DNA of 64,000 nucleotides from an uncultured Bdellovibrionales bacterium. GTDB taxonomy: Bacteria > Patescibacteriota > Minisyncoccia > Moranbacterales > DUUL01. Location of the stretch: positions 930-64,929 of the forward strand of contig CAYQVD010000004.1 of the NCBI GenBank assembly GCA_964421125.1, read 5' to 3'. Shown one piece after another: positions 1,881 through 44,503 of the stretch; position 1 is the first letter of the stretch; the number at the start of each line of letters is the position of its first letter. A model generated the notes under the pieces. The model made no database searches. It saw only the letters and a program-made list of their open reading frames with translations, and was not told where the DNA came from. The translations under genes were made by a program, and so were the position numbers.

Positions 1881-2666
1881 TTACTCTTCCTCTAAAGACA
1901 AAGGATTTTTCGGTAAACTTTCCCAAAGTAAATCAAAAGTCAGTCTTTGAAGATCCACCAACTCTTTTGACTCAACAACAACTGCCATTTTTTCTTCCCA
2001 AGATGCAATCAGCATCTTGTTATTATAAATATTAATCTCTGGAGAAAAACTCATTTTATCTTCCGGTAAAAACCTTGTATCTCTCATTTCTTCTTGATTA
2101 CGTTTTGCTGTTTCAACAGAAAGCTTATTCTGTGGAATAATTGCTTTAATAAAAATCTTCTTTCCAGCTCTCCTTTTAAAATATTCCGGGAAAAATCCAG
2201 GTAATCCCTTATTCATCGTTTCTACATTAGCATAAGCCAAAATAATGTCTTTTGAAATTAATGTGTCTTCATATGCCTCTCTCATCCCCTTTTCTCCTTC
2301 AAAGAACTGAACTTTAGGCTTATTGGCTGAATAGATATTTTGTAAAGAAATCAACTGTGGCATCAATTCTGTCACTTTTTCTTTTTGTTTTTCTATTTTT
2401 TTAACACTTTCTTCTTTTTCCCTATCTAAATAGGTTACTAAATGTTTTGGATCAAGCGCATTAAAAAAAGTTGATGCGCCTTTTTTATACTTACTAATCA
2501 ACCCTCTCTGCAAAAGAGCATCACAAATATCATAGATAGTAGTCCTATTTAAGCCCGTTTTCCTTGATAAATCCTTAGCTTTCGCCGATCCTAACTCAAC
2601 TAAGCCCAAATAAACTTGGGTTTCTTTTTCTGAAAAATTAAGTTGTTTTAATAGTTTTTCTAGCAT
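1881..2666 (-). CDS. TrmB-like winged-HTH transcriptional regulator (paralog 1 of 6 in the window)
   Basis: The N-terminus ETQVYLGLVELGSAKAKDLSRKTGLNRTTIYDICDALLQRGLI matches the TrmB wHTH. The C-terminal domain is shared with the ORFs at 42634, 48558, 55687 and 63395. Confidence 0.7.
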   Translation of the reverse strand: MLEKLLKQLNFSEKETQVYLGLVELGSAKAKDLSRKTGLNRTTIYDICDALLQRGLISKYKKGASTFFNALDPKHLVTYLDREKEESVKKIEKQKEKVTELMPQLISLQNIYSANKPKVQFFEGEKGMREAYEDTLISKDIILAYANVETMNKGLPGFFPEYFKRRAGKKIFIKAIIPQNKLSVETAKRNQEEMRDTRFLPEDKMSFSPEINIYNNKMLIASWEEKMAVVVESKELVDLQRLTFDLLWESLPKNPLSLEEE

Positions 2667-2678
2667 ATTCTATTAATT

Positions 2679-2933
2679 TTACCCAATTAAATAAGCTTTG
2701 AGTCTCTTTTTGATAAACATCGTCCCGTGATAAGTTTTTAAATACTTTTCACGACGTGTAGCATCTTGTTGATTTAAACAGGCTTCATAATAAATCAATT
2801 TTAAAGGTCTTCTGTTTTTTGTAGAGTTAACTTCTCCTTTCACGTGCAACTCAAATCTTAATTTTAAATTTCTAGTATATCCAATATATCTTTTTCCATC
2901 TTTCTTACTTAAAAGTACATATACATAATACAT
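2679..2933 (-). CDS. GIY-YIG nuclease-family small protein
   Basis: 84 aa starting MYYVYVLLSKKDGKRYIGYTRNLKLRFELH, which matches GIY..YIG.T.NL..R...H. Confidence 0.75.
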   Translation of the reverse strand: MYYVYVLLSKKDGKRYIGYTRNLKLRFELHVKGEVNSTKNRRPLKLIYYEACLNQQDATRREKYLKTYHGTMFIKKRLKAYLIG

Positions 2934-3070
2934 ACCAGGGGGAATTTAAAATTATTTAATCGGGTGTTGTGGATATTACTTCGACAAAATAAGTATATTA
3001 AATAAAGGCTTAATTGTCAATTTTATTCACTTAATCAATGCACCCTCCGACATAATTTTACAATTTAGTA

Positions 3071-3107
3071 TATACTAATTTATTACGATGAAATAGTTTC
3101 ATTGTAA
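3071..3107 (+). promoter_or_regulatory. Putative -10 element (TATACT, 3071-3076) followed by the 25-bp near-perfect palindrome TTACGATGAAATAGTTTCATTGTAA (3083-3107). Candidate operator or leader hairpin for the 3145 cassette
   Basis: The palindrome is seen directly. Nearly the same 40 nt recur at 43571-43610. A related GTTAC-N17-GTAAC motif occurs at 56603-56629 and 8702-8728. Confidence 0.45.
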
Positions 3108-3144
3108 TGATAAACAAACAAGTTCTTTAAAAAAGGAGAAAACA

Positions 3145-3837
3145 ATGAATATTCTCATTATCGAAGATAACGAAAATCATATTGAAGATGCAAAAGCAAT
3201 TTTTGGCGAAAACATTGAAATTGCAAAAAACTTGGATGAAGCATGGGAAAAGTTAAGAAAAAATGAATACGATGGAGTAATTTCCGATATATTCTTCTCA
3301 AAGGGAGAATGTAAATCAATTTTTTCTGATGAACACCCAGATTTTGACATCATCACAAGCATGCAATGCCAATATATCCTTGCTGGATATGGAGCAGAAA
3401 ATGATTATGCATTGGGCGCAGATGCTGACGCAAGAGAGTGGTGGATAAAAGTTCTCAGGGAAGTTGAAAAGTGGAATGGATTCAGTGGATATGAACTTCC
3501 TCCAGCAGGGGTCTTGGTTCTCAATCACTGTATCAAACACAACATCCCGATCGTGATGAACACAGACATCAAACATCATGGCTTATCAATTGCTCCAGTT
3601 GAAAGATTATGCATAAACCTCCAAATCCCCGTTATTTGCGAATACGAAGGGAAAAAGCAGTGGAAAGAAGCTCTTGAATATCTCAAAGAAGAACTTCATC
3701 CAGATACAGAAACCATTGCTCACCGCCAAAAACGCCGATCAGAGAAATATGAAACCAAAAATTCTTACAATGGAGGAATTAGAATGAACATATTAAGACA
3801 CCTAATAGAAAGAGAGAAAGAAATTGATTTCTCCTAA
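3145..3837 (+). CDS. Receiver (CheY-like) domain protein with a C-terminal extension; orphan, no kinase nearby
   Basis: MNILIIEDNENH..., ...YDGVISDIFF (Asp-pocket position), ...IPIVMNTD. There is an RBS AAGGAGAA upstream. Confidence 0.6.
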   Translation: MNILIIEDNENHIEDAKAIFGENIEIAKNLDEAWEKLRKNEYDGVISDIFFSKGECKSIFSDEHPDFDIITSMQCQYILAGYGAENDYALGADADAREWWIKVLREVEKWNGFSGYELPPAGVLVLNHCIKHNIPIVMNTDIKHHGLSIAPVERLCINLQIPVICEYEGKKQWKEALEYLKEELHPDTETIAHRQKRRSEKYETKNSYNGGIRMNILRHLIEREKEIDFS

Positions 3838-3838: not shown

Positions 3839-3961
3839 CATCCGGGAAGTTGCAAAACATTGCGACTTCCCAATTCTCTCGGCTTTATTTGAATTGTTCA
3901 AGCGAGCCCGAGTAGAATTAAAGAATGTACTTTAAAAACTGAATATATAAAGGAGATAGAA
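3839..3961 (+). repeat. Intercistronic structured repeat copy R1 (~110 nt): hairpin GGGAAGTTGC..GCGACTTCCC, then a CTCGG..CCGAG stem, then A-rich spacer and RBS
   Basis: About 108 nt are nearly identical to 4313-4420. A diverged copy with compensatory stem changes lies at 57058-57181. Confidence 0.7.
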
Positions 3962-4303
3962 ATGACTAATGGAACTTTATTATTAGTAAGTGACAAAGAA
4001 AAAGAAATTGCAATTAACGAATTATTAGACTGCGTCGGTAAAATTACAACTGCTAAAAACAAGTTCCGTGCGCAGGAACTTCTTGAAAAAAATAATTTCA
4101 GTTTAGTAATAACTGGAAATGAAGAGTGGATGATTCGTATCGCCGGAAAAGCACTAGATCGAGAAACTCCTAAAATCATTGTATTTGAAAAATCGAAGAC
4201 TTGGCTGGGAGGATCCATTTTAGGTAAAACAGCAGGGATAGGAAAAATTCTTTGTAAAGAAAAAATGAGTTACAAAGAAGCATTGGAATTATTTCCTAAA
4301 TAA
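3962..4303 (+). CDS. Small pseudo-receiver-like protein (113 aa), hypothetical
   Basis: TLLLVSDKEKE...FSLVITGNEEW...PKIIVFEKSK resembles the receiver fold but lacks the phospho-acceptor Asp. The ORF is flanked by R1 and R2. Confidence 0.5.
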   Translation: MTNGTLLLVSDKEKEIAINELLDCVGKITTAKNKFRAQELLEKNNFSLVITGNEEWMIRIAGKALDRETPKIIVFEKSKTWLGGSILGKTAGIGKILCKEKMSYKEALELFPK

Positions 4304-4312: not shown

Positions 4313-4431
4313 CCGGGAAGTTGCAAAACATTGCGACTTCCCAATTCTCTCGGCTTTATTTGAATTGTTCAAGCGAGCCCGAGTAGAATTAAAGAATGTA
4401 CTTTAAAAACTGAATATATAAGGAGTGGGAA
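4313..4431 (+). repeat. Intercistronic structured repeat copy R2; followed only by an 8-codon ORF remnant (MKYIRLSL*)
   Basis: Direct repeat of R1, including the RBS and start-codon context. Confidence 0.7.
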
Positions 4432-7516: not shown

Positions 7517-8548
7517 TTATAACTCTTCCTCCTTATTATCAACATCCTCCTTTTTAACAGACAAAAGATCTGGATATTCAATCGCCATTTGAGTAAACTT
7601 ATCTATTTGATAAACCTCGTTCACTTCAACTTGAAAAATAATATCATTAAAATCATGTTTCATCTGATTTATCAACCCTCTTAACGCTTTTCGATCCTTA
7701 ATTTCAATATCCAACATAAGTTGCCAATTCCCCATCACTTTCACATAATTAACAATATTTGGATGTTTCACACAAAATTGATACAAAGACTCCACTTTTT
7801 CTTTGTTAAATTGTTTTATCTTAAATAAAACTCGAAACATTCTTAATCCAATAGATTGATAGTTTAAAGTAAATGTTGTTTTTGTAATAATTCCCTTTTT
7901 AATCATTTTTGTATAACTCCTATGAACAACCCCTGTTGTCACGCCCAAAACCTTTGCCATTTCTGAAAACTCCATTCTCCCATCAATTTGAAGAAGTGAA
8001 ATAATTTTTTGATCTAATTCTGACAGTTTCACTACCTTTTTAAATCCCCCTGAAACACTAACGCTTTCTTCTTCGTTTTCTTTATTAAGAAAATACGATC
8101 GAGGAAATTTCAAAAATCCCAATCCAACCACAATCTCACTCATTGTGATGTATTTACCAAATTCACCAAAAACCTCTTGAAGAATTTTATTGTGACTAAA
8201 AACATCTTGGGCAATGATTGCAATAAAAGCATCTGCATAGCCATCACATCGAAAAATAATTGGGATATACTTATTTTCTTTTAATTTCAAAAACATCGCA
8301 TCTTGTTGATCTTTAGTGAGACCACTAAATTTCAACCAATATCCCCAAAAAAATGAATATCCCACTCGATCATAATCAATAAAAGCCCAAAAATGCTTAA
8401 TAACCTCTTCATCCCTAAATCTTGCCATATGATACTTTACTACTTGTGGAGAAGTTTTAATATTTCTAGCTATTTTTGAATAACTAGCTCTTCCATCTTT
8501 TTCAAGCTCAAATAGTATTTTTTTGTCTAAATCTGTTAATTTAACCAT
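7517..8548 (-). CDS. Tandem-duplicated Lrp/AsnC-type wHTH regulator (two HTH_AsnC-like modules in one 343-aa protein)
   Basis: The first module LDKKILFELEKDGRASYSKIARNIKTSPQVVKYHMARF is repeated as LDQKIISLLQIDGRMEFSEMAKVLGVTTGVVHRSYTKM. Confidence 0.55.
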   Translation of the reverse strand: MVKLTDLDKKILFELEKDGRASYSKIARNIKTSPQVVKYHMARFRDEEVIKHFWAFIDYDRVGYSFFWGYWLKFSGLTKDQQDAMFLKLKENKYIPIIFRCDGYADAFIAIIAQDVFSHNKILQEVFGEFGKYITMSEIVVGLGFLKFPRSYFLNKENEEESVSVSGGFKKVVKLSELDQKIISLLQIDGRMEFSEMAKVLGVTTGVVHRSYTKMIKKGIITKTTFTLNYQSIGLRMFRVLFKIKQFNKEKVESLYQFCVKHPNIVNYVKVMGNWQLMLDIEIKDRKALRGLINQMKHDFNDIIFQVEVNEVYQIDKFTQMAIEYPDLLSVKKEDVDNKEEEL

Positions 8549-8701
8549 TTTTCGATATTAATTTCACTAAATTTACAAAAATAACTGTTTTTAAAAACTT
8601 ATTATTTTTAAATAATTCTATTTTAATAACATCTTACACTACTTTTTAAAACTAATCAACAAAACTATTGAAATATTATCTATTCTATGCTATTATATCT
8701 C

Positions 8702-8728
8702 GTTACGATAAAATAGGTTCAAAGTAAC
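8702..8728 (+). promoter_or_regulatory. GTTACGATAAAATAGGTTCAAAGTAAC leader palindrome (family of 3083, 43586, 56603) upstream of the ORF at 8773
   Basis: GTTAC-N17-GTAAC preceded by TATTATAT; the downstream GAAAATTGAATAAAAGGAGAGGGAAATG is also conserved with the 43658 leader. Confidence 0.45.
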
Positions 8729-8772
8729 AACTTAAAGGAAGTTCATTGAAAATTGAATAAAAGGAGAGGGAA

Positions 8773-9153
8773 ATGAAAAAAAGAAATGAGTTATTAAAAT
8801 CCTTGGATAAAATTAATGGTGGAAGCGACTGGAAAGACATGCAATTTGAATTCTACTGCTTTTGGTCTAATAACCATACGTCCTCGGTCCCTCCTGGACA
8901 CATAGACACAAAAGAAGAAAATTTATTGAGAAATTTTGGTTTTGACCTAAATGCTCGTTTTATCTTCCATGTCAATTATGTAAGTTATGGTAGCATGGGA
9001 CATGAAAATTACACAGTTGCTCATATTGTCAGAAACGCGATTCTTGATCCAGAATATGACATGGAACAATTCCGAGAAGAATACACCAAAGGGAGTGATG
9101 GTTATACTTATTGTTCTACCTTCTCCATAACCATAAATCCTAAAACTTCTTAA
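8773..9153 (+). CDS. Hypothetical protein (126 aa)
   Basis: Strong RBS GGAGAGGG and the conserved leader; no recognisable domain. Confidence 0.5.
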   Translation: MKKRNELLKSLDKINGGSDWKDMQFEFYCFWSNNHTSSVPPGHIDTKEENLLRNFGFDLNARFIFHVNYVSYGSMGHENYTVAHIVRNAILDPEYDMEQFREEYTKGSDGYTYCSTFSITINPKTS

Positions 9154-11351: not shown

Positions 11352-12761
11352 ATGACCCATGACGAATTTTGGCAGGCAGTTCTTGGAGAAATAGAGCTTT
11401 CCTTGTCAAAAGCAAGTTTCACAACTTGGTTTAAAAATACTTCAGTTAATCAAATCGGCGACTCCGAGTTTGTTTTGAATGTTCCAAATATTTTTGCTAA
11501 AGAATGGTTAGAAAAAAAATATCGAAAAAATATTCTGGATTCTGTTCAAAAATTTTACCCCAAAGTAACAAAGTTTTCTTGTTTAATCTCTGATAGTCAG
11601 GATTCTTCTCGAAGCATTGACTCTATTGTAAACTTAAAAACAAATCAGTCTCAACAACAAACAAATGCTTCTTCACAGCCACAACGAAATAAACTTAACA
11701 AACCTTCTTCAAAGCCTTTTGGAGGATTTTCTGTTAATAGTAACCTTAACAATCGATATGGCTTTAATTCTTTTGTAATTGGTTCCAATAATGAACTCGC
11801 TTATGCCGCTTGTCGATCAGTCGCGGAAAATCCAGGAAAAAATTATAATCCACTTTTTGTTTATGGGGGAGTAGGACTAGGAAAAACGCATCTTCTTCAA
11901 TCAACAGGGAGTGAGATTCTTCAAAATTTTCCTAATAAAAAAGTGAAGTATATTAGCATGGAAAGATTTGCTAATGAGCTTGTTACTGCAATTCAAACAT
12001 CAAAAGCTAAGAATTTTAAAAATGAATACATTCAACTCGACGTATTAATTATTGATGATGTTCAATTTCTTTCTAATAAAGAAAAGACTCAGGAAGAGTT
12101 TTTTCATGTATTCGAATCATTATATCAACTAGAAAAACAGATAATTATCAGTTCTGATCGACCACCAAAATCAATTCCAACCCTTGAAGATAGACTTCGT
12201 TCAAGATTTGAGGGAGGGATGATGGCTGATATTAGTAAGCCTGATTTAGAAACAAGAATGGCAATTATTAAAAAGAAATTGGCAGAAAAGAATTTCAAGC
12301 TAGACGAGGATATTATTATTTATTTAGCTGAAAATATCTATCATAACGTTCGAGAACTCGAAGGAGCTCTAAATAAAATAATTGTAACCTATCAACTAAA
12401 AAATTATCCTCCATCTCTTGAAAAAATAATGGGTCAAACAGAAGATGTTATATCAACTAATCGACAAAAAGATTTAAGCCCAGATAAAATTATCTGTTCT
12501 GTTGCAGAATTTTTTGATGTTAAAAAAGAAGAAATAATAGGTCGTTGCAGAAAAAAGAAAATTATTAAACCAAGACAACTTGCAATATACCTATTAAGGA
12601 CTGAATTAAACCTTTCTTTTCCTGAAATAGGGAAGGCAGTTGGTGGTCGAGATCACTCAACTGCTATTTATGCTTGTGGAAAAATTGAAAAAGAATTGGA
12701 GGGTAATAAAATTATGGAAGATCATTTAAAATTTATTAAGGAAAAATTTGTAGATTTTTAA
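11352..12761 (+). CDS. dnaA: Chromosomal replication initiator protein DnaA
   Basis: N-terminus WQAVLGEIELSLSKASFTTWFKNT, Walker A GGVGLGKTHLLQ, and the C-terminal DNA-binding region KPRQLAIYLLRTELNLSFPEIGKAVGGRDHSTAIYA. Confidence 0.95.
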   Translation: MTHDEFWQAVLGEIELSLSKASFTTWFKNTSVNQIGDSEFVLNVPNIFAKEWLEKKYRKNILDSVQKFYPKVTKFSCLISDSQDSSRSIDSIVNLKTNQSQQQTNASSQPQRNKLNKPSSKPFGGFSVNSNLNNRYGFNSFVIGSNNELAYAACRSVAENPGKNYNPLFVYGGVGLGKTHLLQSTGSEILQNFPNKKVKYISMERFANELVTAIQTSKAKNFKNEYIQLDVLIIDDVQFLSNKEKTQEEFFHVFESLYQLEKQIIISSDRPPKSIPTLEDRLRSRFEGGMMADISKPDLETRMAIIKKKLAEKNFKLDEDIIIYLAENIYHNVRELEGALNKIIVTYQLKNYPPSLEKIMGQTEDVISTNRQKDLSPDKIICSVAEFFDVKKEEIIGRCRKKKIIKPRQLAIYLLRTELNLSFPEIGKAVGGRDHSTAIYACGKIEKELEGNKIMEDHLKFIKEKFVDF

Positions 12762-12936
12762 TTTTTACGAAATACGAATTATTATTGCGATTTTAGAGAA
12801 TTATCAACAAGAGGACGTCTTAGTGGTTATACTAGAAGTTTTACTTAAATAGATGCCAGGAGGAATGGGGTTTATTTTAAATAAAATATAACTTAATTAA
12901 TAAATAACTTTAACAAATTAATTAATATAAAAATTT

Positions 12937-13521
12937 ATGAACAAAGAAACACCACAACAAGAAACTATTAAAGGTCAAAAAGAAGTCTCAATAGAAAACC
13001 AGGAAAAGATAGATTTAAAATGGAATATAGTAAATAACCCTAACTCTACTGAGGAATATCTTGAAGACATCACTGATTCTAATAAACAACTTGAACGGTA
13101 CCAAGAAAGAGGGAACGGATTTAGACATCTCAGTATTTTTAAAGAAAATATTAATCAGGGAGAAATGATAAAGGAAGTGCTTAATGAAAATGGTGATAAG
13201 GATAAGTTTAATGAGGTTGATGAAAATTTACAAAATTATAAAGAAAAACTAAAAGAGACAGTTGATATAATTGCAAAAAAATGGGAAGACGATTTAAATA
13301 TGGGGCGATTAATGATTTTAGAAGAATTATATACAACTTTAGAGGATAATAAAGAAGCACAAAAATTTAAAGAAATGTTTGAAGAAAAAAGGAGACCAAA
13401 GGATTTAGTTAAAAATGAGGATGTGGTAGATAAAAAACCAAAACTGATTGATTATTCAGCCCAAGAACAAGAGGATAAACAGCAGACAGAAGAAATAAAA
13501 AAGAAGATAGATGAATTATAA
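12937..13521 (+). CDS. Acidic, Lys/Glu-rich hypothetical protein inserted between dnaA and dnaN
   Basis: 194 aa, low complexity, predicted coiled coil. Confidence 0.5.
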   Translation: MNKETPQQETIKGQKEVSIENQEKIDLKWNIVNNPNSTEEYLEDITDSNKQLERYQERGNGFRHLSIFKENINQGEMIKEVLNENGDKDKFNEVDENLQNYKEKLKETVDIIAKKWEDDLNMGRLMILEELYTTLEDNKEAQKFKEMFEEKRRPKDLVKNEDVVDKKPKLIDYSAQEQEDKQQTEEIKKKIDEL

Positions 13522-13589
13522 CTTATTAAATTTATAATTTAATATCCTGTTAACAACCTGTGAATTAGATGTTAAGGATGTTAATTAAA

Positions 13590-13796
13590 ATGTTAATAAG
13601 TTATCCAAAAACTACTCTACTTTACTATTAATAAGTTATCAACATTAATATTTAATACTTTTAAACTTTTTTATCCCCAAGTTTTAATGCTAATTATATT
13701 TATAAATAAAGGATTTTTATAACTTATTAACATAAAAGTTTATAGTAGTAATAATAGTATTTAATAATATATATAATTTATATAACTATACACACC
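13590..13796 (+). promoter_or_regulatory. Putative oriC core: DnaA-box-like sites (TTATCCAAA, TTATCAACA, TTATCCCCA) followed by an extremely AT-rich unwinding element just upstream of dnaN
   Basis: The boxes lie at about 13597, 13627 and 13671. Positions 13680-13795 are more than 85% A+T, and the region sits in the canonical dnaA-dnaN position. Confidence 0.55.
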
Positions 13797-14945
13797 ATGA
13801 AATTTACTTGTAAAACAAATAATTTAAAAGAAGCAGTTAGTAAAGTTGAAAGAATTGTTTCTAAACAAACAACCTTACCAATTTTAGCTAATATTTTAAT
13901 TAAAACAGAAAAAGGAAGGTTGTTAATTGGAGCAACTAATCTTGAAATAGCAATTCGTTCTTATGTGGGAGCTAAAATTGAAAAAGAAGGAGAAATAACT
14001 ATTCCAGCTAGAATATTAAGTGGTTTTTTAACTAGCATTAGAGATGATACTGTAAAATGTGAGTTAAGTGGAACAGAATTAAAGGTTAATTCTGAAAATC
14101 ATAAAATTAAAATAAAGGGGATGGAAGCAAAGGATTTTCCAATTATTCCTCAAGTGCCAAGTGAGTATTTTATTAAAATAAATTCTAATAATTTTAATAA
14201 AGCAATTCCAGGATTATTAGTTTCAGTTGCTCATAATGATACTAGACAGGAATTAAATGGGATATTAATTAAGTTTTCGTTGAAGGAAATTGTTTTTGCT
14301 TCAACAGATAGTTTTCGATTAACTGAAACTAAAATTGAATTACCAGAAGAGGCAATAGGTGAGGATTATGAGGTTTTTATAAATAATACACCGTCAATTA
14401 TTATTCCTTATTTAACTCTTTCTGAATTACAGAGAATTATTGAAGATGGTGAGTTTGAATTAATAATTAGTCAAAATCAATTATTTATTAAAAATGATTC
14501 AGTTAATTTAATTTCAAGGCTAATTAATGGAAGTTATCCAGAATATAATCAGGTTTTACCAGAAAAATATGAAATAGAAGCTAGGATTAATAAAAGCGAA
14601 TTTTTAAATGCTCTTAAAATTGCTTCGTTAGTAGCATCGGTTAATAATGGTGAAGTTAAAATTAGTAATTCTAAGAATAATAAATTTTTAAAAATATCCG
14701 CTGAGTCAGTTGATTCAGGAGAAAATATTTCTAAAATTGAGGCTGAGATAAGTGGTCCAGAATTTGAAGTTATATTTAATTGTCGTTATTTATTAGAAGG
14801 ATTGAATATAGTTGAATCAGATGTTGATAATATTTTATTGAAGTTAAATCCTAGTAAATCACCAGTTATGATTAGAGGATTGAAATCTGAAAAAGAGGAA
14901 GATGAAAAATTTTCTTATGTGATTATGCCTATAATTAAAGGATAA
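13797..14945 (+). CDS. dnaN: DNA polymerase III beta sliding clamp
   Basis: 382 aa; the opening MKFTCKTNNLKEAVSKVERIVSKQTTLPILANILIKTEKGRLLIGATNLEIAIRSYV is typical of DnaN. Confidence 0.9.
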   Translation: MKFTCKTNNLKEAVSKVERIVSKQTTLPILANILIKTEKGRLLIGATNLEIAIRSYVGAKIEKEGEITIPARILSGFLTSIRDDTVKCELSGTELKVNSENHKIKIKGMEAKDFPIIPQVPSEYFIKINSNNFNKAIPGLLVSVAHNDTRQELNGILIKFSLKEIVFASTDSFRLTETKIELPEEAIGEDYEVFINNTPSIIIPYLTLSELQRIIEDGEFELIISQNQLFIKNDSVNLISRLINGSYPEYNQVLPEKYEIEARINKSEFLNALKIASLVASVNNGEVKISNSKNNKFLKISAESVDSGENISKIEAEISGPEFEVIFNCRYLLEGLNIVESDVDNILLKLNPSKSPVMIRGLKSEKEEDEKFSYVIMPIIKG

Positions 14946-17865: not shown

Positions 17866-18906
17866 ATGGAAAAGAAAAATAAAAAACAAGAACGACAATT
17901 ATTATTTAATAAGATTGCAATCTTTTTTGCGATTATGTTTTTGGCTTGGTTTAATTTGTCAAGGGCGGATATTAATGGTCTTAATGTTTTTCAAGATAAG
18001 GATCAAGATGGTATTTCTGATAAAGAAGAATATTCTTATGGAACAGATCCAGAGAAAAAAGATACTGATGGAGATGGTTATTCTGATAAGGTTGAAATTG
18101 AAAGTGGATATGATCCACTAAAACCTGCTCCAGGAGATAAGTTAATTGCGGATAAAGAGACCCAGGTCTTAGGAGATAACGATGTTAATCTTACAGAAGA
18201 GTTTTTTGAAGAAATTAAAAACGAAGAATTTGGTGAGGCGGCGATTTTAAATGAATTAATAACCACAGGAGATGTTACTGAAGAAGAATTAAGTGAATTA
18301 TATTCTGAAAGTGGAGGAGAAGGTGATTTAAGTGAGATTATTAATGGATTAGCTGATGAAAATTTAACCAAAGAAATAGAAGTTGAAATTTCCGAGGATG
18401 ATATAAAGATTCTGTCTAAGCCAGAAGGAGAAGAAGATGAGGTGAGACAAGTCGAAAAAGAGCAAATAGAAGGATACATGAGTTCAATTTTATATATTTT
18501 AGCAGTAAATCGTCCTTTTGAATTAGATGATATTAGTGATTTACCTAGTAAGATATCAGATTATATTTTTCAAATTGAAGGTGATATTGAAGGAGGAAAT
18601 TTAAAGGAGATACAAGAATATAAAAACACAATAAAAGAAACATTTGAACAAATCAAAAAACTTGAAGCCCCATATGTTTTAGTGGAACAGCATTTATCCA
18701 TTTTAAATATTTATCAAATTTTTTACAATGAAATTGATGAAATGAAACTATTAAGTGATGATGACCCTCTTACGCTTTTAGTTTATGCTGGAAAAATAGA
18801 AGGACTTTTTTTTGAACTTGAGCTTGTTCAACAAGAAATACAAGAAGTTTTAGATGAATATGAAATAGACTCCTTTGATTTATCATCAGTGGCTGATAAT
18901 TTTTAA
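17866..18906 (+). CDS. Secreted acidic protein with thrombospondin-type-3-like Ca-binding repeats (DKDQDGISDKEE / DTDGDGYSDKVE)
   Basis: N-terminal signal/TM segment, DxDxDG repeats, and Glu/Asp-rich remainder. Confidence 0.55.
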   Translation: MEKKNKKQERQLLFNKIAIFFAIMFLAWFNLSRADINGLNVFQDKDQDGISDKEEYSYGTDPEKKDTDGDGYSDKVEIESGYDPLKPAPGDKLIADKETQVLGDNDVNLTEEFFEEIKNEEFGEAAILNELITTGDVTEEELSELYSESGGEGDLSEIINGLADENLTKEIEVEISEDDIKILSKPEGEEDEVRQVEKEQIEGYMSSILYILAVNRPFELDDISDLPSKISDYIFQIEGDIEGGNLKEIQEYKNTIKETFEQIKKLEAPYVLVEQHLSILNIYQIFYNEIDEMKLLSDDDPLTLLVYAGKIEGLFFELELVQQEIQEVLDEYEIDSFDLSSVADNF

Positions 18907-18949
18907 GGATTTTTGGTAAATAAATTTATTAAAAGATTTATCTTAAGGA

Positions 18950-19882
18950 ATGTTAAATAAAAGTAAAAAAACTTTAATTATATTTTTAATAGCAATATTT
19001 TTTGTTTTTAATTTTAATATTAAAAAAGTCAATGCGGGAGGATTGTGGTTTGAGTCGATTGCAGCCGAAATAATGCATGAAACTTGGGCGGAACTGTCAG
19101 AACAAATTAAAGGGATATTTATTGCAAAACTTAAGCAAGAAGGACTGAAGGCCTTTGCTAATACAGTTAGGGGTGAAGCAGATGATCAGTTAATTACTAA
19201 TTTTAATTCCTATTTAAGTGGTGAAGTTAAAAATGAAACAGAAGATTATGTAACTAATCTTTATGCAACAGTAGCAGATAGAGATAGTGGGGGTGATTAT
19301 ACTGATATGGCAAGAGGAATAACGCAAAAGGCTATTCAAAACGATTTATCTTCTGAAGTAGGGGGATCAGAAATAGAAAATATACTTAATCCGGGTGCTA
19401 ACGTGAAAGAAGATCTTTTTAAAGCATCTTCTGGGGGAGGAGTTGAAGTTATCCCTCGGATATTAGGTGATAGAGAAAATTTATATGGAAGATTTATGGG
19501 TGAAGCTACAAATATAAGTAATACCAGAGAAGTTATTAAAGAAGCGAAGATAACGGAGGCAACTGGACATGGCTACAGGGGAAATGGAGAGGTTTCTGGA
19601 GAAGTACTTGCTAGTAAGGTTGCTAAAGCAGAGACACTACAACAAGACTTGATTGCTAATGCGACAACTGCTGGAGAGATAGCAGCAATAATGGGAACGG
19701 AATTTGATCCATCGGAGATATTAGCAGCATCTTTAAGATCAGGGAAAGAGGCTTTAAGGAGCCTGGCAAAAGGAGCTTTAGGACCTCTTTATAAAGGTGT
19801 TGCAGGAGTAACAGGTTTGCAGGCTGTAGATGCAATAGCAGGAGGAAATTATTCAGGAATGGGATCTGTTTCATTTCAATAA
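18950..19882 (+). CDS. Secreted Gly/Ala-rich hypothetical protein
   Basis: Signal peptide ...KKVNA|GG; no recognisable domain. Confidence 0.5.
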   Translation: MLNKSKKTLIIFLIAIFFVFNFNIKKVNAGGLWFESIAAEIMHETWAELSEQIKGIFIAKLKQEGLKAFANTVRGEADDQLITNFNSYLSGEVKNETEDYVTNLYATVADRDSGGDYTDMARGITQKAIQNDLSSEVGGSEIENILNPGANVKEDLFKASSGGGVEVIPRILGDRENLYGRFMGEATNISNTREVIKEAKITEATGHGYRGNGEVSGEVLASKVAKAETLQQDLIANATTAGEIAAIMGTEFDPSEILAASLRSGKEALRSLAKGALGPLYKGVAGVTGLQAVDAIAGGNYSGMGSVSFQ

Positions 19883-20047
19883 TAAGGTTTAATGCAAAAA
19901 TTTAAAATAAAAAATCATTATTTTAAAAACAAGCAATTTTTAAGCAGTTGTTATTTTTTAATGAGTAATTATATTTTTAAAATTAAAAAAACAATAGAAG
20001 ACAGATTGTTTCTGTTTTATTTTAAGTTAGAAAATTTTACTGGAAAG

Positions 20048-22057
20048 ATGAGAAATAAAAAAACAATTAGTTTTGTGGCTTCATTTTTTTTATTACTTAT
20101 ACCATTTTTTTCTTTTGCAACAGAAGAGGGAGTCAAGGCTCCTGACTTATTGGAAGAACCTACCGGTGGCTTTTGGGGAAATATGTTTTTTAAAGGAACG
20201 CTTACTATTTTTTATTTAATATTCAAACTTATTGCATATATTTATTTTTTCTTTTTAAAAATTTTAGATTTTACGATATCTGGTAGATTATTTGATGATG
20301 TTTTTTTCTCCCCAACATCTTTAGTTGTTTTAAATACTTCATGGGCAGTTATTCGTGATTTTTTTAATTTATTTTTTATTCTTATTATAGTTTTTATTGC
20401 AATTTCAATCATTTTGGGAATTGATAAATATAATGATAAAAAATTAATTTTTAGAGTGATAATGGCAGCAGTTTTGGTAAATTTTTCAAAAGCAATTTCT
20501 TTAGTGATTATTGATATTTCACAATTAACTATGGGATTTTTTAGTCAAGCAATTACTTTGGTTGGGAATAATTTCATTAATGTTTTTGCTGATAAGCTTA
20601 GTATGGGAAAGGTATTAGGAGGCTTTCCATTTGACAATTCCGCTACTTTTTTTGTTGCATTATTGATATCAATTATTTTTTTGTTTTGTTTGACAGTTTT
20701 AATAGGAATTTTAGCGATAGCTATGGTAATTCGTTTAGTGGCTTTTTGGGTTTTAGTGATTCTTTCTCCAATGGCTATGTTTGGACTTTCTCTTCCGGGA
20801 ACTGCAATTGGAAAGTTAACAAAAAAATGGTTTGAAAAAATGGTTTCATGGGCATTTTTTGGTCCGTTAATGATGTTTTTTTTATGGTTAGCTTTGATAG
20901 TGGTTAGTACGGCTTCAGCGGCTATAACTAGTGGCGATGCTGGTATGTTTGGATCGGTATCCGTTGGTGTTAATCAAAAGGCCTTAGAACAAATGATTTC
21001 TGAAGTTTTAAAAATGCTAATTCCTTTTATCGCAGGAGCTTATTTGCTTTGGTATGGATTTGATCAATCCAGAACATTGTCTCAAGGAGCGGCAAGTGCA
21101 GTTATAGGGTGGGGAGGGGAAAATATGAGTAAATGGGGAAAAACAGCTGCTAAGGGAGTTGGTTATACCGCAGCAGCTCCTCTTGTTGCAGCAGGGGCAG
21201 TAGGAGCTTATGGAGCGAATATGGCGGCAGGAGGAAGTAAAAATCCTCTTAGATTAAAAGAGGATTTAAAAGCTAGATATGAAGGAACAAAAAATCGTGT
21301 AAAAAATTCAAAAATAGTTAAGCCTTTTACAAAAGAAGAAAGAGAAAAAGACTATAAAAATAAAGTTGCTAGGTATTCTGGTGAAACAGAAGAACTTGAA
21401 CGAAGTGTAAATAATGAGGAAGTGAAAAAACTTGAAGAGGATAAGTCTCTTACTAAGGATGATGCTATGTCAAAAATGAATAACACAAGGGCCAGTAAAG
21501 AATCAAGAGTTGCAGCAGCAATGTATTTATCAAAAAAAGGATTTTTAAATAAAGGAAAAGAGCATTCAGCGGCTGAGGAGGCGATGAAATTAACAGGAAA
21601 TAATTCACTCAAGGATACTTTTGATAAAAATTCAAAAGATAAAAATTCTCTTGGTAGATACGAAAGTAATATTAATAAACAAAAAGCTATTGTTAAAAAG
21701 GAAGGGGTAATTACAAATGAAAAGCAGATTGGAATAGAAGCGGAAAACCGTGCAAAGTCTGAAGTTAAAAAAGATATAGACAAAAAATCTCTTGATGACA
21801 TATTAAAAATGGATAAAGAGCTTCTTGAGGATAAAGAAATTTTTGATCATATTAAAAAGATGGGATTTGATCTTAATAATGCTGTTAAAAAAGGCAATAA
21901 GAACTTAACAGGAAAAAAGGCAAGAGCAATTAGAGGGAATCTTAATCTACAAGAAGATAAAAAAACAGTTAAGAATATAAGAACTCATTCTGATGTACAA
22001 AGAGACTTAAGACTTAGAAATGACAAAGAGATAAAAAAACATTTTCCTGAAAAATAA
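20048..22057 (+). CDS. VirB6/TrbL/PrgH-like polytopic membrane protein with a charged C-terminal tail (T4SS channel-component candidate)
   Basis: Signal peptide plus about 8 TM segments, then a ~280-aa Lys/Glu-rich tail. It lies upstream of the PrgI-like and VirB4 genes. The likely start is ATG at 20048 (MRNKKTISFVASFF...) rather than the track's 19892. Confidence 0.5.
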   Translation: MRNKKTISFVASFFLLLIPFFSFATEEGVKAPDLLEEPTGGFWGNMFFKGTLTIFYLIFKLIAYIYFFFLKILDFTISGRLFDDVFFSPTSLVVLNTSWAVIRDFFNLFFILIIVFIAISIILGIDKYNDKKLIFRVIMAAVLVNFSKAISLVIIDISQLTMGFFSQAITLVGNNFINVFADKLSMGKVLGGFPFDNSATFFVALLISIIFLFCLTVLIGILAIAMVIRLVAFWVLVILSPMAMFGLSLPGTAIGKLTKKWFEKMVSWAFFGPLMMFFLWLALIVVSTASAAITSGDAGMFGSVSVGVNQKALEQMISEVLKMLIPFIAGAYLLWYGFDQSRTLSQGAASAVIGWGGENMSKWGKTAAKGVGYTAAAPLVAAGAVGAYGANMAAGGSKNPLRLKEDLKARYEGTKNRVKNSKIVKPFTKEEREKDYKNKVARYSGETEELERSVNNEEVKKLEEDKSLTKDDAMSKMNNTRASKESRVAAAMYLSKKGFLNKGKEHSAAEEAMKLTGNNSLKDTFDKNSKDKNSLGRYESNINKQKAIVKKEGVITNEKQIGIEAENRAKSEVKKDIDKKSLDDILKMDKELLEDKEIFDHIKKMGFDLNNAVKKGNKNLTGKKARAIRGNLNLQEDKKTVKNIRTHSDVQRDLRLRNDKEIKKHFPEK

Positions 22058-22063
22058 AAATAT

Positions 22064-23107
22064 ATGAAAATAAATAAATTACAACTTAATCCTGTTTTTG
22101 CGAGAATTAATAGTGATGACAAAGTTGATGGAGATGAGTTTGAGATATGGTATGAAGAAAAATTTCAAAAAGCTTCGCTTGAAGTGAGACTTGGAATTGG
22201 TGGTGACACGGTAGAAGAAGAAATTCAAAAAATTTGTGAGAAATTTGGGATTTCTGATTGGCAGAAAATTGGATATACAGCCAGGATAATTAGAGATATT
22301 TTTTGTGATGATCTCAAAGAAGACGGAATAAAAAAGATAGCAATTGAGAATATTAATATTGAAAAAGCTGATTTAGCAGTTTTTCTTCAGTTAATTAAAG
22401 AAATAGTAAAAAAAATTAAACAAGCTGGAGAAAAAGAATATACTGAAATAATTGATAAATTAACACTAAAGGAAGCAGTGAGGCTATATCCAGAAATTCA
22501 AAAACAACAAATTTCAGAGAAAGCATTGAGACCTGAAGGTAGCGAATATTTAGTGGCGGGTAATGTAAAAAATTGGTTAACAAATTATTTTCAAGAAGTA
22601 GGGGGGAATAAGCATAGTTCTCTTGAAAGAAGTGATTATTTGTTTAAATCAAAGAGCGTTAAGGGTTTAGATCAAGATGAAATAGAGAATCTAGGAGTGA
22701 TTTTAAAAGCCTTTGATGATGATTCTCTTGTGGCAGTTGACAAGGAATTTAAGGAGATTGATTTTAACGAAAGTAGAGCGTTGGATAATGGGAAAAGAAA
22801 ATTAAATGGTATTATGAAAAGTTATGATAATAACTTGGAAAATGATTTAGTTGAAAATAAAGGAATAGAAAGAATTTCAAAACAACCTGAATATAATTTA
22901 AAACAAAAAGATAAATTTGAAAAAATTGAGAGTACTCCTAGGTTTGAAGTGGACGGAAATTCCAAAAAAAATAATTCAGAAATTCCAAGTAATAATGTCA
23001 TTAGTCTTAAACAAACAGATCCGAATCTTCAGGTAGAAAAAAAAGAAAAGAAAAAAAGTAGAAGTGAAAACGATCAAAATGTTTTAGATTTGAGTGATTT
23101 TGTATAA
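22064..23107 (+). CDS. Hypothetical soluble protein within the T4SS-like cluster
   Basis: 347-aa ORF lying between the VirB6-like and PrgI-like genes; no recognisable domain. Confidence 0.5.
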   Translation: MKINKLQLNPVFARINSDDKVDGDEFEIWYEEKFQKASLEVRLGIGGDTVEEEIQKICEKFGISDWQKIGYTARIIRDIFCDDLKEDGIKKIAIENINIEKADLAVFLQLIKEIVKKIKQAGEKEYTEIIDKLTLKEAVRLYPEIQKQQISEKALRPEGSEYLVAGNVKNWLTNYFQEVGGNKHSSLERSDYLFKSKSVKGLDQDEIENLGVILKAFDDDSLVAVDKEFKEIDFNESRALDNGKRKLNGIMKSYDNNLENDLVENKGIERISKQPEYNLKQKDKFEKIESTPRFEVDGNSKKNNSEIPSNNVISLKQTDPNLQVEKKEKKKSRSENDQNVLDLSDFV

Positions 23108-23119
23108 GCAAATAATAAA

Positions 23120-23521
23120 ATGCGTTATCAAGTCCCACAATTTATTGATATAGAAGACAAAATTGCTTTTCAGTTAACCGCTAAGCAATTGGGTTGGTTT
23201 GCTATTGGTGGAGTAATGCTATTTGTTCTTTGGACTTTTGTTTCGTTTGTCCTGTTTGTTGTTTTTGGCATTATGATCATTGGTGCCTCAGCTGGATTAG
23301 CCTTTGTTAAGATTAATGGAGCGTCGTTATTAGAATATCTTGGTAATAGTTCAACATTTTTTTTCAAACCAAGAATTTTTATTTGGAGAAAAACAGTTAG
23401 TTCTGCAGAAGGTTTATATCAAAAAGCTAGCCCTAATTTACAGAAAAATAATAAAACAAGAGTAAAAAAGAAAAAAATTGAAGATTTAGACAAAATAGTA
23501 AACATTCTTAATTCACAGTAA
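23120..23521 (+). CDS. PrgI-family / VirB3-like small membrane protein
   Basis: MRYQVPQFIDIEDKIAFQLTAKQLGWFAIGG followed by two TM segments is the typical PrgI opening and architecture. Confidence 0.5.
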   Translation: MRYQVPQFIDIEDKIAFQLTAKQLGWFAIGGVMLFVLWTFVSFVLFVVFGIMIIGASAGLAFVKINGASLLEYLGNSSTFFFKPRIFIWRKTVSSAEGLYQKASPNLQKNNKTRVKKKKIEDLDKIVNILNSQ

Positions 23522-23538
23522 CTTTAAAGTTAACGGTT

Positions 23539-24216
23539 ATGCAAGAAAATAAAAACAAAGATAAATATCCATCCTTTCAGGATCAAATGGATATTGCTGA
23601 AATAAAAGAAAATGCAGTTGTCTTAAAAGATGGTTCTTTGAGAGCAGTTCTAGCTGTTTCTGCGATTAATTTTGATTTAAAATCTGACCAAGAACAAGAA
23701 GGACTAATTTTTGCTTATCAAGGATTTTTAAATGCTTTTGATTTCCCTTTTCAAATAGTTGTTTCTTCAAAGAAATTTGATGTTGATCCATATTTATCAA
23801 TGTTGAAAAGAAAAGGTCGAACAGAAACAAATGAATTACTTCGAAGACAAATAGAGGATTATACAACTTTTGTTGGTGAATTAGTTGGAATGGCTAATAT
23901 TATGACTAAACTTTTTTATATTATTATTCCTTTTTACTCAATAGAAAATAAACAAAAAGGATTTTTAAGTAAGATTTCTTCTACTATTAATCCAAGAAAA
24001 ACTATCTATCAAAAAAACGAAGATTTTGAAACATATAAAAATCAACTTTTTCAAAGAGTTGATCAAATAAGTGAAACATTATCTGGCACAGGTGTTAAAA
24101 TGGTTCCACTTAGCACAGAAGAATTAATTGAACTTTTTTATAATTCATATAATCCATCTGAATTTGAGTATGTAAAAATGGAGGATTTAAATAAAATGGA
24201 ATTGGAGAAGAAGTAA
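23539..24216 (+). CDS. Hypothetical T4SS-associated protein
   Basis: 225-aa ORF lying between the PrgI-like and VirB4 genes; any resemblance to a VirB4 N-terminal domain is speculative. Confidence 0.45.
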   Translation: MQENKNKDKYPSFQDQMDIAEIKENAVVLKDGSLRAVLAVSAINFDLKSDQEQEGLIFAYQGFLNAFDFPFQIVVSSKKFDVDPYLSMLKRKGRTETNELLRRQIEDYTTFVGELVGMANIMTKLFYIIIPFYSIENKQKGFLSKISSTINPRKTIYQKNEDFETYKNQLFQRVDQISETLSGTGVKMVPLSTEELIELFYNSYNPSEFEYVKMEDLNKMELEKK

Positions 24217-24234
24217 AAATAAGAAATAATTAAG

Positions 24235-26085
24235 ATGTTCAAGTTATCTAAAAAGAAAAAAGAAAATAAAGAAAAGCAACAAATTGCTCAAGTTCCGAAT
24301 ATTAATAAGAATGATATTCAAGAGCAAAATAGAATTTACAGAGAAGGTCTAGTCAGGGTTTTAGATTTTATTGCTCCTTCAGCTTTAGCTATTTCTTCTT
24401 CTAATATTCAAATTGGAGAAGTTTATTGTCGAACGTTGTTTATAACAGCTTATCCAAAAATTTTACCAATTGGATGGATGGGGGGGATTATTTCCTTGGA
24501 TTTGCCAATGGATATATCTATTTTTGTTCACCCAATTGAAACTGTTAAGATAATGAAGTCTTTGCGAAAAAAAACCACTCAAATTCAATCAGAGCTTGAC
24601 ATCGAATCAAAAAAGGGATTAACCCGTAATCCAATGCTTGAAATGGCGTATAGAAATGTAGAAGAATTAAGAGATAAATTGCAAGAAGGAGTTGAAAAGT
24701 TTTTTAAGATGGGCGTTTATGTAAATGTTTTTGGAAAAAGTTCTGAAAAGCTTGATAAAAATGCTTCATATCTAATCACAACTCTTGAGTCACAATCAAT
24801 TTATGCGAAAAAATCAATTTTTCGGATGAAAGAAGGTTTTGACTCATGTTTACCATTATGTACGGATAAGCTTATGACTGGAATTGATTTTAATACAGCA
24901 CCTTTATCAACTTCATTTCCTTTTATTTCTGCTGATGTGACTTCTAATGAAGGAATTTTGTATGGAGTAAATAAGCACAATAATTCTTTGATTCTTTTTG
25001 ATCGTTTTACAATGGAAAATGCCAATATGGTAGTTTTTGCAAAATCTGGAGCTGGTAAAAGTTATGCGATTAAATTAGAATTATTACGTTCATTAATGCT
25101 TGGAACGAGTGTTATTGTCATTGATCCAGAAGACGAGTATCGATATTTAGCAGAGGCAGTAGATGGAAGTTTTATAAAAATTTCTCTTAACTCTCCTCAT
25201 CATGTTAATCCTTTTCAGTTAGCTATTGAAAAAGGTGTTGATATAAGCGAATTATTGAGATCTAATATCGCTAATTTACTTGGTCTTTTTAAGTTAATGC
25301 TTGGAAGTATAACCCCAGAAGAAAGCGCTGTTCTTGAGAGAGCGATTAGGGAAGTTTATGCATCAAGAGATATCTCAGAAAAAACTTCGCCAGAAAGATT
25401 AGCGGGGATTACCATGCCAATTTTATCTGATTTATATGAAGTTTTGAGAAATATGCAAGGCTCAGAGGATTTAGCAATTAGACTAGAAAAATATACAAAA
25501 GGAGTCTTTTCGGGGTTCTTAAATCATCCATCAAATATATCACTTAATAATCAGTTAGTAGTTTTTAACATTAGAGACCTTGAGGAAGAATTGAGACCAA
25601 TTGCTATGTATCTAATTTTACATCATATTTGGAATGAAATTCGAGTAGATATTAAAAAACGAATAATTGTGGTTGATGAAGCTTGGGTAATGATGGAACA
25701 TGAAGCTGCTGCAAAATTCTTATATTCAATTGCAAAAAGAGTTAGAAAATATTATGGAGGATTAACTACTATAACTCAAGATATTTCCGATTTTATGTCT
25801 TCAAAATATGGAAAACCAATTGTTTCAAATTCTTCTATGCAACTTCTTATGAAACAATCACAATCTTCGATTGATGTAGTGGCTAATACATTTTATTTAA
25901 CAGATAGAGAAAAATATCTTTTAATGAATAGTGGAGTAGGGGAAGGGATCTTTTTCGCTGGTTCTAAGCGAGCTGCAATTCAGGTGGTGGCTTCGTATAA
26001 TGAGGATAAACTTGTGACAACTGATCCAGCACAGCGCTTAGAAATGAAAAAAGAAGAAGTTTCTGATGAGATTGAATTACTTTAA
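24235..26085 (+). CDS. virB4: VirB4/TrsE/PrgJ-family type IV secretion ATPase
   Basis: ...DFIAPSALAISSSNIQIGEVYCRTLFITAYPKILPIGWMGG..., Walker A FAKSGAGKSY, Walker B IVVDEAWVMM, and ...TTITQDISDF. Confidence 0.85.
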   Translation: MFKLSKKKKENKEKQQIAQVPNINKNDIQEQNRIYREGLVRVLDFIAPSALAISSSNIQIGEVYCRTLFITAYPKILPIGWMGGIISLDLPMDISIFVHPIETVKIMKSLRKKTTQIQSELDIESKKGLTRNPMLEMAYRNVEELRDKLQEGVEKFFKMGVYVNVFGKSSEKLDKNASYLITTLESQSIYAKKSIFRMKEGFDSCLPLCTDKLMTGIDFNTAPLSTSFPFISADVTSNEGILYGVNKHNNSLILFDRFTMENANMVVFAKSGAGKSYAIKLELLRSLMLGTSVIVIDPEDEYRYLAEAVDGSFIKISLNSPHHVNPFQLAIEKGVDISELLRSNIANLLGLFKLMLGSITPEESAVLERAIREVYASRDISEKTSPERLAGITMPILSDLYEVLRNMQGSEDLAIRLEKYTKGVFSGFLNHPSNISLNNQLVVFNIRDLEEELRPIAMYLILHHIWNEIRVDIKKRIIVVDEAWVMMEHEAAAKFLYSIAKRVRKYYGGLTTITQDISDFMSSKYGKPIVSNSSMQLLMKQSQSSIDVVANTFYLTDREKYLLMNSGVGEGIFFAGSKRAAIQVVASYNEDKLVTTDPAQRLEMKKEEVSDEIELL

Positions 26086-26134
26086 GTTACGATAAGAATC
26101 TTTATAAAAAAAGAATGTTATAAGGGAAATTTAA

Positions 26135-26812: not shown

Positions 26813-26824
26813 TATGATATATAA

Positions 26825-30721: not shown

Positions 30722-30757
30722 TAAAAAATGAGAAATATTTTATACTAGTTTTAATTT

Positions 30758-41659: not shown

Positions 41660-41780
41660 ATAAAGTTTATTTAATTACTCTTCTTTATATCAGGTTATCA
41701 GTCTAAAGTCAAAAAAAGTCCCTAATTACGGGAAATTTTAATGTACTTGAACGGAAGTAGTGAAATTTGATAGAATTAAA

Positions 41781-43610: not shown

Positions 43611-43657
43611 GAAGAGGAAGATAGTTCGTTGAAAATTGAAGATAAGGGAGAGGGGAA

Positions 43658-44497: not shown

Positions 44498-44503
44498 CAA
44501 ATG

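Follow-up and report, generated by a model that had tools for sequence, protein, structure and literature searches.

Four palindromes ahead of small genes

In this work we analysed a 64,000-nucleotide (nt) stretch of contig CAYQVD010000004.1 (assembly GCA_964421125.1), hereafter the window, which is bacterial chromosome around dnaA/dnaN with a G+C content of 31%, and which carries four copies of a GTTAC/GTAAC palindrome directly ahead of small protein-coding genes. The original prediction had offered two readings of these palindromes, a repressor operator in DNA or a hairpin in the 5' untranslated region (UTR) of the transcript; the comparative data presented here favour the hairpin and disfavour the operator. 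We consider it most likely that each of the four palindromes forms the opening stem-loop of a conserved mRNA leader, and probably none is the DNA operator of the neighbouring regulators. The palindrome is the first, optional part of this longer leader, whose more constant part is a second, BoxA-like box that had been overlooked when the palindrome was first seen.

All four copies were found where they had originally been placed (3083-3107, 8703-8727, 43586-43610 and 56604-56628), on the forward strand, with the consensus (G/A)TTACGAT-N-GTAA(C) and upstream of an open reading frame (ORF) on the same strand. TTAC-N17-GTAA occurs in the window at these four places only, and TTACGAT-N9-T-N4-GTAA, with at most one mismatch allowed, gives six matches against 0.46 expected (0 of 100 dinucleotide shuffles reach six), these six being the four loci plus reverse-strand matches at two of them. 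Copy 1 (3082-3108) is predicted to form a 5' stem-loop, ATTACGATGAAA-TAG-TTTCATTGTAAT, with 12 pairs including one G.U and a folding energy of -9.2 kcal/mol (z -5.6), and from its -10 box it reads tatact-aattta-TTACGATGAAATAGTTTCATTGTAA (3083-3107). Copy 2 (43585-43611) repeats this palindrome with two changes (43586-43610) and has two G.U pairs on the forward strand; the near-identity of copies 1 and 2, TATACT -10 box included, holds at 36 of 40 positions from the -10 box onward. Copy 3 (56603-56629, GTTACGATGAAGTTGTTTCAAAGTAAC) has the form GTTAC..TGAA-N5-TTCA..GTAAC, and copy 4 (8702-8728, GTTACGATAAAATAGGTTCAAAGTAAC) is GTTAC-N17-GTAAC with a weak inner stem, so both keep the stem while the interior varies, as had been suspected.

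In a promoter-site scan each copy begins 5-6 nt past the -10-like hexamer of a predicted promoter, in agreement with the earlier observation that it lies just after a -10 box. The promoter-like sites, all on the forward strand, are CCGACA-18-TATACT for copy 1 (3047-3076), TTGCCA-17-TATACT for copy 2 (43551-43579), and, both TG-extended, TTGACA-17-TATATT for copy 3 (56569-56597) and TTGAAA-17-TATTAT for copy 4 (8668-8696). The count of four was upheld by a covariance-model search of the window with hairpin and downstream box, run with filters off and with the four copies as training data, which returned the four copies at 72-75 bits and no fifth, the next-best matches being the reverse strands of the same four sites (14-23 bits). 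Searched against the Rfam 15 covariance models at gathering scores and again with E values up to 5, the four sites and their surroundings gave no match. A reading of the hairpin as an attenuator or terminator was rejected since no U-tract follows it.

A BoxA-like box downstream of each palindrome

Alignment of the four regions reveals a second conserved box, AGTTCnTTrAAA, 10-12 nt past each palindrome, starting at 3121, 8740, 43623 and 56640. On the forward strand it reads AGTTCTTTAAAA in copy 1 (3121-3132), AGTTCATTGAAA followed by ATTGAAT in copy 4 (8740-8751), AGTTCGTTGAAA followed by ATTGAAG in copy 2 (43623-43634) and AGTTCTTTAAAT in copy 3 (56640-56651), and the boxes of the window lie 23-34 nt ahead of start codons. 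The box resembles BoxA, for which the gamma-proteobacterial consensus is GYTCTTTAANA (PMC5725501): the last 11 nt of the copy 1 box fit at 11 of 11 positions, copy 3 fits at 10 of 11 and copies 2 and 4 at 9 of 11, against a consensus that is gamma-proteobacterial and may not be this lineage's own. A lineage-adapted pattern, AGTWCNTTRAAA, occurs six times in the window against 0.84 expected, each time in intergenic sequence (6/6), the pattern having been picked after seeing the data. A likeness of the second box to the CodY box was considered and dropped, since the left half of the box is not the complement of its right half and the box is hence no palindrome.

Regulator-cargo modules of the window

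The 64 kb contain six modules in which a regulator gene accompanies a variable cargo gene, and the BoxA-like box is present in all six of their leaders while the hairpin is present in only four; AAUU follows the box in four of the six. The statement that each palindrome is divergent from a regulator gene stands for copy 2 (TrmB-like regulator, 42634-43422), copy 3 (TrmB-like, 55687-56430) and copy 4 (a tandem AsnC/Lrp-type helix-turn-helix protein, 7517-8548), all on the reverse strand, and does not stand for copy 1, where the nearest divergent ORF encodes a GIY-YIG protein (2679-2933, reverse strand) and the TrmB-like gene of the module (1881-2666, reverse strand) sits beyond it. This small GIY-YIG ORF is homing-endonuclease-like and is inserted between the TrmB-like gene and the copy 1 promoter.

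The four downstream ORFs are, as first reported, mutually unrelated, with no match among them and no significant Pfam family. They lie on the forward strand at 3145-3837 (copy 1; weak receiver-domain-like N-terminus), 43658-44218 (copy 2; followed by a terminator-like hairpin at 44264-44295), 56671-57057 (copy 3; the ATG at 56671 is preceded by AGGAGAGGG, the mechanical ORF start being 56653) and 8773-9153 (copy 4; no family). The fifth module has a forward-strand leader at 49455-49518, with TTGACA-17-TAGAAT and then the BoxA-like box AAGCACATTGATAATTTA (49501-49518) and no GTTAC hairpin, between a TrmB-like regulator (48558-49310, reverse strand) and its cargo (49544-49984, forward strand). 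In the sixth, on the reverse strand at 52569-52586, GTTA is followed by the BoxA-like box TAGTTCCTTGAAAAAACA, again with no hairpin, between a regulator with a weak TrmB match of 28.4 bits (52650-53336, forward strand) and its cargo (51413-52546, reverse strand). The copy 3 regulator has 113 homologues, of which those with a name are labelled Candidatus Moraniibacteriota, Falkowbacteria or Patescibacteria. The window itself is Moraniibacteriota-like metagenome sequence of the candidate phyla radiation.

The TrmB-like genes have leaders of their own with palindromes directly after their -10 boxes, at 56454-56474 (ATGTCGTAAAAATATGACAAC), 43436-43459 (AATAACGCTTTTTGCGTCGTTATT) and 49333-49350 (TGACGACATAATTCGTCA), and related loci carry GTTGACGAAAAATATCGACAT. 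These palindromes are candidate autoregulatory operators or 5' hairpins, and better operator candidates than the GTTAC palindrome. BoxA-like sequences were also observed outside the module leaders. One lies on the reverse strand at 41736-41747, 72 nt upstream of infB (IF-2), and another, AGTTCATTTAAA, on the forward strand at 51198-51209, between an intron-containing tRNA-Phe and tRNA-Gly. Two identical 91-nt repeats (3860-3950 and 4331-4421, forward strand) combine a promoter-like TTGAAT-18-TAGAAT, a BoxA-like ATGTACTTTAAAAACTGA and a Shine-Dalgarno sequence, the first repeat ahead of ORF 3962-4303 and the second ahead of an unlisted short ORF.

Related leaders in metagenomes

Orthologous loci, identified through the regulator protein, keep TTGACA-N17-TATAnT-N5-GTTACGAT in the divergent intergenic region and do not keep the GTAAC arm at N17. 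A metagenome scan with TTGACA-N17-TATANT-N5-GTTACGAT, which fixes the promoter and GTTACGAT only and leaves everything downstream free to vary, found 109 stretches, 90 of them unique. The leader-bearing loci span 33% to 63% G+C, and their cargo proteins are highly diverse (67 proteins falling into 58 clusters). A search of species-representative genomes with the strict 25-nt pattern was set aside: it gave eight single matches in unrelated taxa, which is chance level, and the two that were read had no promoter context, one of them lying inside an uninterrupted reading frame.

Downstream of the fixed promoter, CGTAA occurs within +10 to +70 in 36 of 87 leaders, compared with a median of 3.5 for permuted 5-mers. 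The partner of nucleotide 1 sits 19-66 nt downstream in about 90 related leaders, a threefold spread in spacing, and the N17 arm spacing is fixed only within the window. That the complement of the 5' end (CGTAAC) is enriched at such variable distances points to a stem with a variable loop and not to an operator with fixed spacing. Nucleotide 1 can form a Watson-Crick or G.U pair in 43 of 56 cases, so the complementarity extends to nucleotide 1, which together with the promoter geometry places the predicted transcription start at the G/A of (G/A)TTACGAT. Minimum-free-energy folding pairs the 5' end in most of the box-containing leaders (mean z -2.0; 58% with z < -1.64), and the inserts between the arms often fold into inner helices of their own. 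Of 55 metagenomic leaders with a box, 29 pair their 5' end with the stretch immediately preceding that box. TrmB-linked leaders outside the search pattern have +1 hairpins with other arms (GTTATT/AATAAC, GTTAAC/GTTAAC and ATTATGATAAA/TTTATCATAAT), and RNAalifold applied to six length-matched hairpins found compensatory changes in 3 of 11 pairs.

Of 92 leaders, 56 have the box, in the form aaG-Y-W-C-n-T-T-R-M-A-A-A, at a score exceeding the 99th percentile of shuffles. It usually lies 0-4 nt past the 3' arm and has specific conserved G, C and TT positions instead of a general A/U richness. Among 42 TrmB-linked modules, 27 have the box on the same strand as the cargo gene and one has it on the other strand. 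Its distance from the predicted +1 is 17-82 nt (median 38), compared with 26-359 nt from the start codon, so that it is anchored to +1. Several metagenomic variants of the box (GTTCTTTAACAA, GTTCGTTGACAATTTAACCC) are close to the E. coli sequence GCTCTTTAACAATTTATC.

Two further features were noted among the related leaders. In many of them (L020, L022, L028, L038, L039, L048, L063, L070) AAATAATAG comes after the box and is succeeded in turn by a small hairpin (e.g. AGCCGACGGGCT), AAAAC and the Shine-Dalgarno sequence. The AAATAATAG-hairpin-AAAAC segment, which none of the window copies contains, may represent a third element conserved in these leaders. Three others (L031, L045, L087) read ...TCGTAACAAGTACCTTGAAAATCACCTCC..., resembling the 3' end of 16S rRNA (TCGTAACAAGGTA ... 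GATCACCTCC), and this segment may be an anti-Shine-Dalgarno mimic or a coincidence.

A hairpin in RNA or an operator in DNA

The case for RNA over DNA rests mainly on the variable loop, on strand specificity and on the failure of the motif to track the regulator. The strongest competing explanation is that the inverted repeat, or a GTTACGA half-site, is bound in DNA by the divergent TrmB-like or AsnC-like regulator, or by one master regulator, and represses the cargo promoter at its start. Site and regulator gene do co-occur, with a divergent TrmB-like gene at 34 of 61 instances that have at least 1 kb of upstream sequence and in five of the six window modules; the positions +1 to +27 are a classic repressor location, the 5' arm is conserved in sequence, and the TrmB genes' own leaders open with a similar GTTGACGA...TCGACA palindrome. 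The recognition-helix region is moreover similar among the window paralogues, which makes a shared site conceivable.

An operator for a winged-helix dimer would be expected to have inverted half-sites at fixed spacing, to be strand-symmetric and to diverge together with its regulator, and none of these holds. Among the related leaders the arms are 19 to 66 nt apart, the element lacks strand symmetry and in every case runs in the direction of the gene, and the 3' arm is positioned relative to the downstream box and not to the promoter. The window paralogues and P0104 of L125, TrmB-like proteins with identities of just 32-39%, share GTTACGA, and the AsnC-type module of copy 4 bears the same motif as the TrmB-like modules, whereas closer regulator orthologues (49-59% identical) have ATCAAGAT, ATCAAGCT or GTTAAGAT in its place. 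Across the 43 TrmB-linked loci that have 220 nt or more of upstream sequence, no further half-site of the CGA type recurs at a constant position, and 27 of the 61 instances have no TrmB-like neighbour, their upstream neighbours being heterogeneous and partly spurious ORFs. A second operator half-site of the TGTCGA type was also sought at fixed positions in the TrmB-cargo intergenic regions and was discarded as present in a minority of loci only. We therefore regard the operator as disfavoured and its truth as unlikely.

A candidate nut-like leader

The explanation that we prefer, and hold with moderate confidence on the strength of sequence comparison, is a nut-like RNA leader, that is, a 5' stem-loop followed by a BoxA-like site for Nus factors, ahead of variable small genes. 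Under this model a sigma-70-type promoter would fire at the G/A of (G/A)TTACGAT, the initial 5-12 nt of the transcript would pair in vivo with a complementary ...(AT)CGTAAC after a loop of variable length, and a single-stranded BoxA-like G-Y-W-C-n-U-U-R-A-A-A, often with AAUU, would follow, and after it the Shine-Dalgarno sequence and the small variable cargo gene. NusB/S10 together with NusA could load on the nascent box, a putative binding site, and modify RNA polymerase early, so that transcription of the cargo would be shielded from premature, probably Rho-dependent, termination, or its translation would be tuned in the manner of suhB. The hairpin would then be an accessory equivalent to boxB, possibly also guarding the 5' end from 5'-end-dependent RNases, and the adjacent TrmB-like or AsnC-like regulators probably act elsewhere in the intergenic region. 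In keeping with an rrn-type arrangement, a stem-loop stands directly upstream of the box in four of the six window leaders, and, as for a BoxA, the box occupies a sense-strand position in the leader soon after the promoter, the promoters being predicted.

A number of observations weigh against this model. Mismatches across the leaders comprise 22 G.U and 13 A.C, which is no decisive strand signal; copies 1 and 2 fold better on the forward strand while copy 4 folds weakly (-1.8 kcal/mol) and better on the reverse strand, so that the wobble asymmetry is mixed across copies, and compensatory changes in the arms would preserve a DNA palindrome equally well. The 5' arm is conserved in sequence even in leaders that lack the 3' arm, which pairing alone leaves unexplained, the 3' arm is absent from about a third of GTTACGAT leaders, and the two window modules without a hairpin imply that the hairpin is dispensable. 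As to the box, exact GYTCTTTAANA occurs once in the window against 1.5 expected, which taken alone is chance level. In favour of the model, every window match of at least 13.3 bits to a weight matrix of the box is intergenic, including the one upstream of infB and two in the 91-nt repeats inside the copy 1 operon, but this matrix was derived from the same sequences that it scores. Neither the window nor the related loci examined contain rRNA genes from which the lineage's own BoxA could be read. Finally, the Nus model gives no reason for the frequent pairing of the leader with a TrmB-like gene.

Alternative explanations

A further possibility is that the element is a 5' stabiliser only, in which the stem-loop guards the mRNA 5' end from RNases and the box is not a BoxA but an A/U-rich translation enhancer or a roadblock site for the regulator. 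Stabilising 5' hairpins such as those of the ompA, ermC and aprE leaders need their stem at the 5' end of the transcript, and here the stem does begin at, or at most 1 nt from, the predicted +1, with the boxes of the window in the short interval ahead of the start codons described above. However, the metagenomic box keeps its distance to +1 and not to the start codon, its specific conserved positions go beyond mere A/U richness, it is not palindromic, and a stabiliser would have no need of a conserved arm sequence; we consider this explanation improbable.

Less probable again is a signal in the initially transcribed sequence, with the hairpin secondary. In the lambda PR' promoter, AACGAT is a -10-like element that holds sigma in a promoter-proximal pause, and TACGAT at +3 to +8 of the present leaders could be a -10-like hexamer of the same kind, the delay allowing Nus factors, or a TrmB-like protein acting like Q, to engage. 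Such a signal would account for the conservation of the 5' motif without a 3' arm: TACGAT keeps T1, A2, A5 and T6 of TATAAT, the A2- and T6-equivalent positions are constant across GTTACGAT and the GTTAAGAT, ATCAAGAT and ATCAAGCT of leaders outside the search pattern, and the distance to the -10 box is a constant 5-6 nt. Yet the resemblance is purely one of sequence, the fixed spacing is partly imposed by the search pattern, and other leaders outside that pattern (GTTATGGG, ACTGAAAT) lack the hexamer.

It is very improbable that the modules are merely paralogous duplicates whose leaders resemble one another as a functionless residue of duplication or gene conversion, as the close identity of copies 1 and 2, -10 box included, and the identical 91-nt promoter-leader repeats might suggest, since the window regulators share just 32-37% identity and their cargo ORFs are unrelated, so that neutral leader DNA would have randomised, and the breadth of the leader, in 109 metagenome stretches across so wide a range of G+C content, largely refutes this reading.

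Novelty and implications

BoxA leaders have been described on mRNAs, as have boxB-BoxA leaders on rRNA; the novelty here lies in a 5' arm that is conserved, in the association with TrmB-like regulator-cargo modules and in the presence of such a leader in Patescibacteria. A literature search for TrmB together with the candidate phyla radiation (CPR) or Patescibacteria found no paper, and one on the leader sequence string returned nothing relevant. Almost nothing is known about the control of transcription in CPR bacteria, and a leader that recurs six times in 64 kb, with its GTTACGAT promoter-leader pattern in so many metagenome stretches, offers a concrete signal. It would mark transcription starts, extend BoxA-type control from rRNA to small variable genes, and define regulator-cargo modules that could be catalogued genome-wide, and it could supply ready promoter-leader parts as genetic work on Patescibacteria emerges. 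A natural misreading is corrected as well, in that a palindrome beside a regulator gene need not be the operator of that regulator.

More speculatively, and with only a slim chance of being right, the GUUACGAU-hairpin-BoxA leader might be a radiation-wide expression cassette, in which each hypervariable accessory gene is served by one dedicated TrmB-like regulator and a consensus promoter, and a pause at TACGAT lets the regulator, Nus factors or both convert RNA polymerase into a termination-resistant form. If so, Q/N-like antitermination logic would operate from the chromosome for accessory genes, and the leader would be the first widespread cis-regulatory RNA/DNA code for CPR.

Further features of the window

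Right after the copy 2 module and its terminator lie a tRNA-Val and then a tyrosine recombinase of the phage integrase family (44424-45489), which may mark the boundary of an integrated element. The tRNA-Phe(GAA) at 50783-51093 (forward strand) has a group I intron within its anticodon loop (Rfam RF00028 at 50805-51044, 87.9 bits); its exons, GCCGGGGTAGCTCAGTGGTAGAGCAAAGGACTG / GAAAATCCTTGTGTCGAGAGTTCAATTCTCTCCCCCGGCA with the single junction G written on both sides, were read by eye, and ARAGORN makes no call. The dnaA and dnaN genes (11352-14945) lie near a sign change of the GC skew at about 12 kb and indicate the region of the replication origin. Beyond them, a block of large ORFs (17866-31876), one encoding a VirB4/TraG-like ATPase (24235-26085), resembles a cluster for type IV secretion or conjugation.

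Comparison with known systems

Like the operators of the TrmB family, the element is an inverted repeat close to the promoter of a gene that adjoins a TrmB-family regulator. The TGM palindrome of Thermococcales, a TrmB-family operator, is TATCAC-N5-GTGATA, whereas the present element is variable in spacing, strand-specific and without co-variation with the regulator, and its arm sequence is unrelated. The ompA, ermC and aprE stabilisers likewise place a stem at the predicted first nucleotide of the transcript; they differ in being defined by structure alone, while here the arm sequence is conserved across lineages. The lambda nut site, like this leader, combines a single-stranded BoxA with a stem-loop in the nascent RNA near the promoter, although there boxA precedes boxB (boxA - spacer - boxB) and here the hairpin comes first, as in rrn; we know of no N-like protein for this leader.

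BoxA elements in the 5' UTRs of mRNAs, those of suhB and other genes, have a wide phylogenetic distribution, and they can act by repressing translation or by promoting Rho termination (Baniulyte et al. 2017, PMC5725501). The present leader agrees with this suhB type in having a 5' UTR box at most tens of nucleotides from the start codon of a non-rRNA gene, and differs in that suhB-type boxes were defined in gamma-proteobacteria by exact consensus, whereas here a Patescibacteria variant is preceded by a conserved 5' hairpin and linked to a regulator.

The closest arrangement is that of the E. coli rrn P2 leader, which, as read in E. coli genomes, runs TATTAT-gcaca-CCCGC-GCCGCTGAGAAAAAGCGAAGCGGC-ACT-GCTCTTTAACAATTTATC, with a median of seven such leaders per genome in the E. 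coli genome collection, each about 100 nt ahead of 16S rRNA. There the -10 box is followed by a hairpin (boxB) a few nucleotides after the start, then 3 nt and BoxA; here the same order appears, with a hairpin at or near +1 that begins about 5 nt after the -10 box and, 0-12 nt beyond the hairpin, a BoxA-type box with an AAUU-containing flank; NusA is reported to bind the AUU-containing spacer after BoxA (PMC2724277). The box cores also correspond, G-Y-W-C-n-U-U-R-A-A-A here and GCUCUUUAACAA in rrn. The present leader differs in preceding small protein-coding genes, in its conserved 5' arm (GUUACGAU) and in having no boxC that we recognised. In both systems the hairpin is dispensable, rrn boxB and boxC not being required for antitermination (PMC2724277) and two modules of the window having the box and no hairpin.

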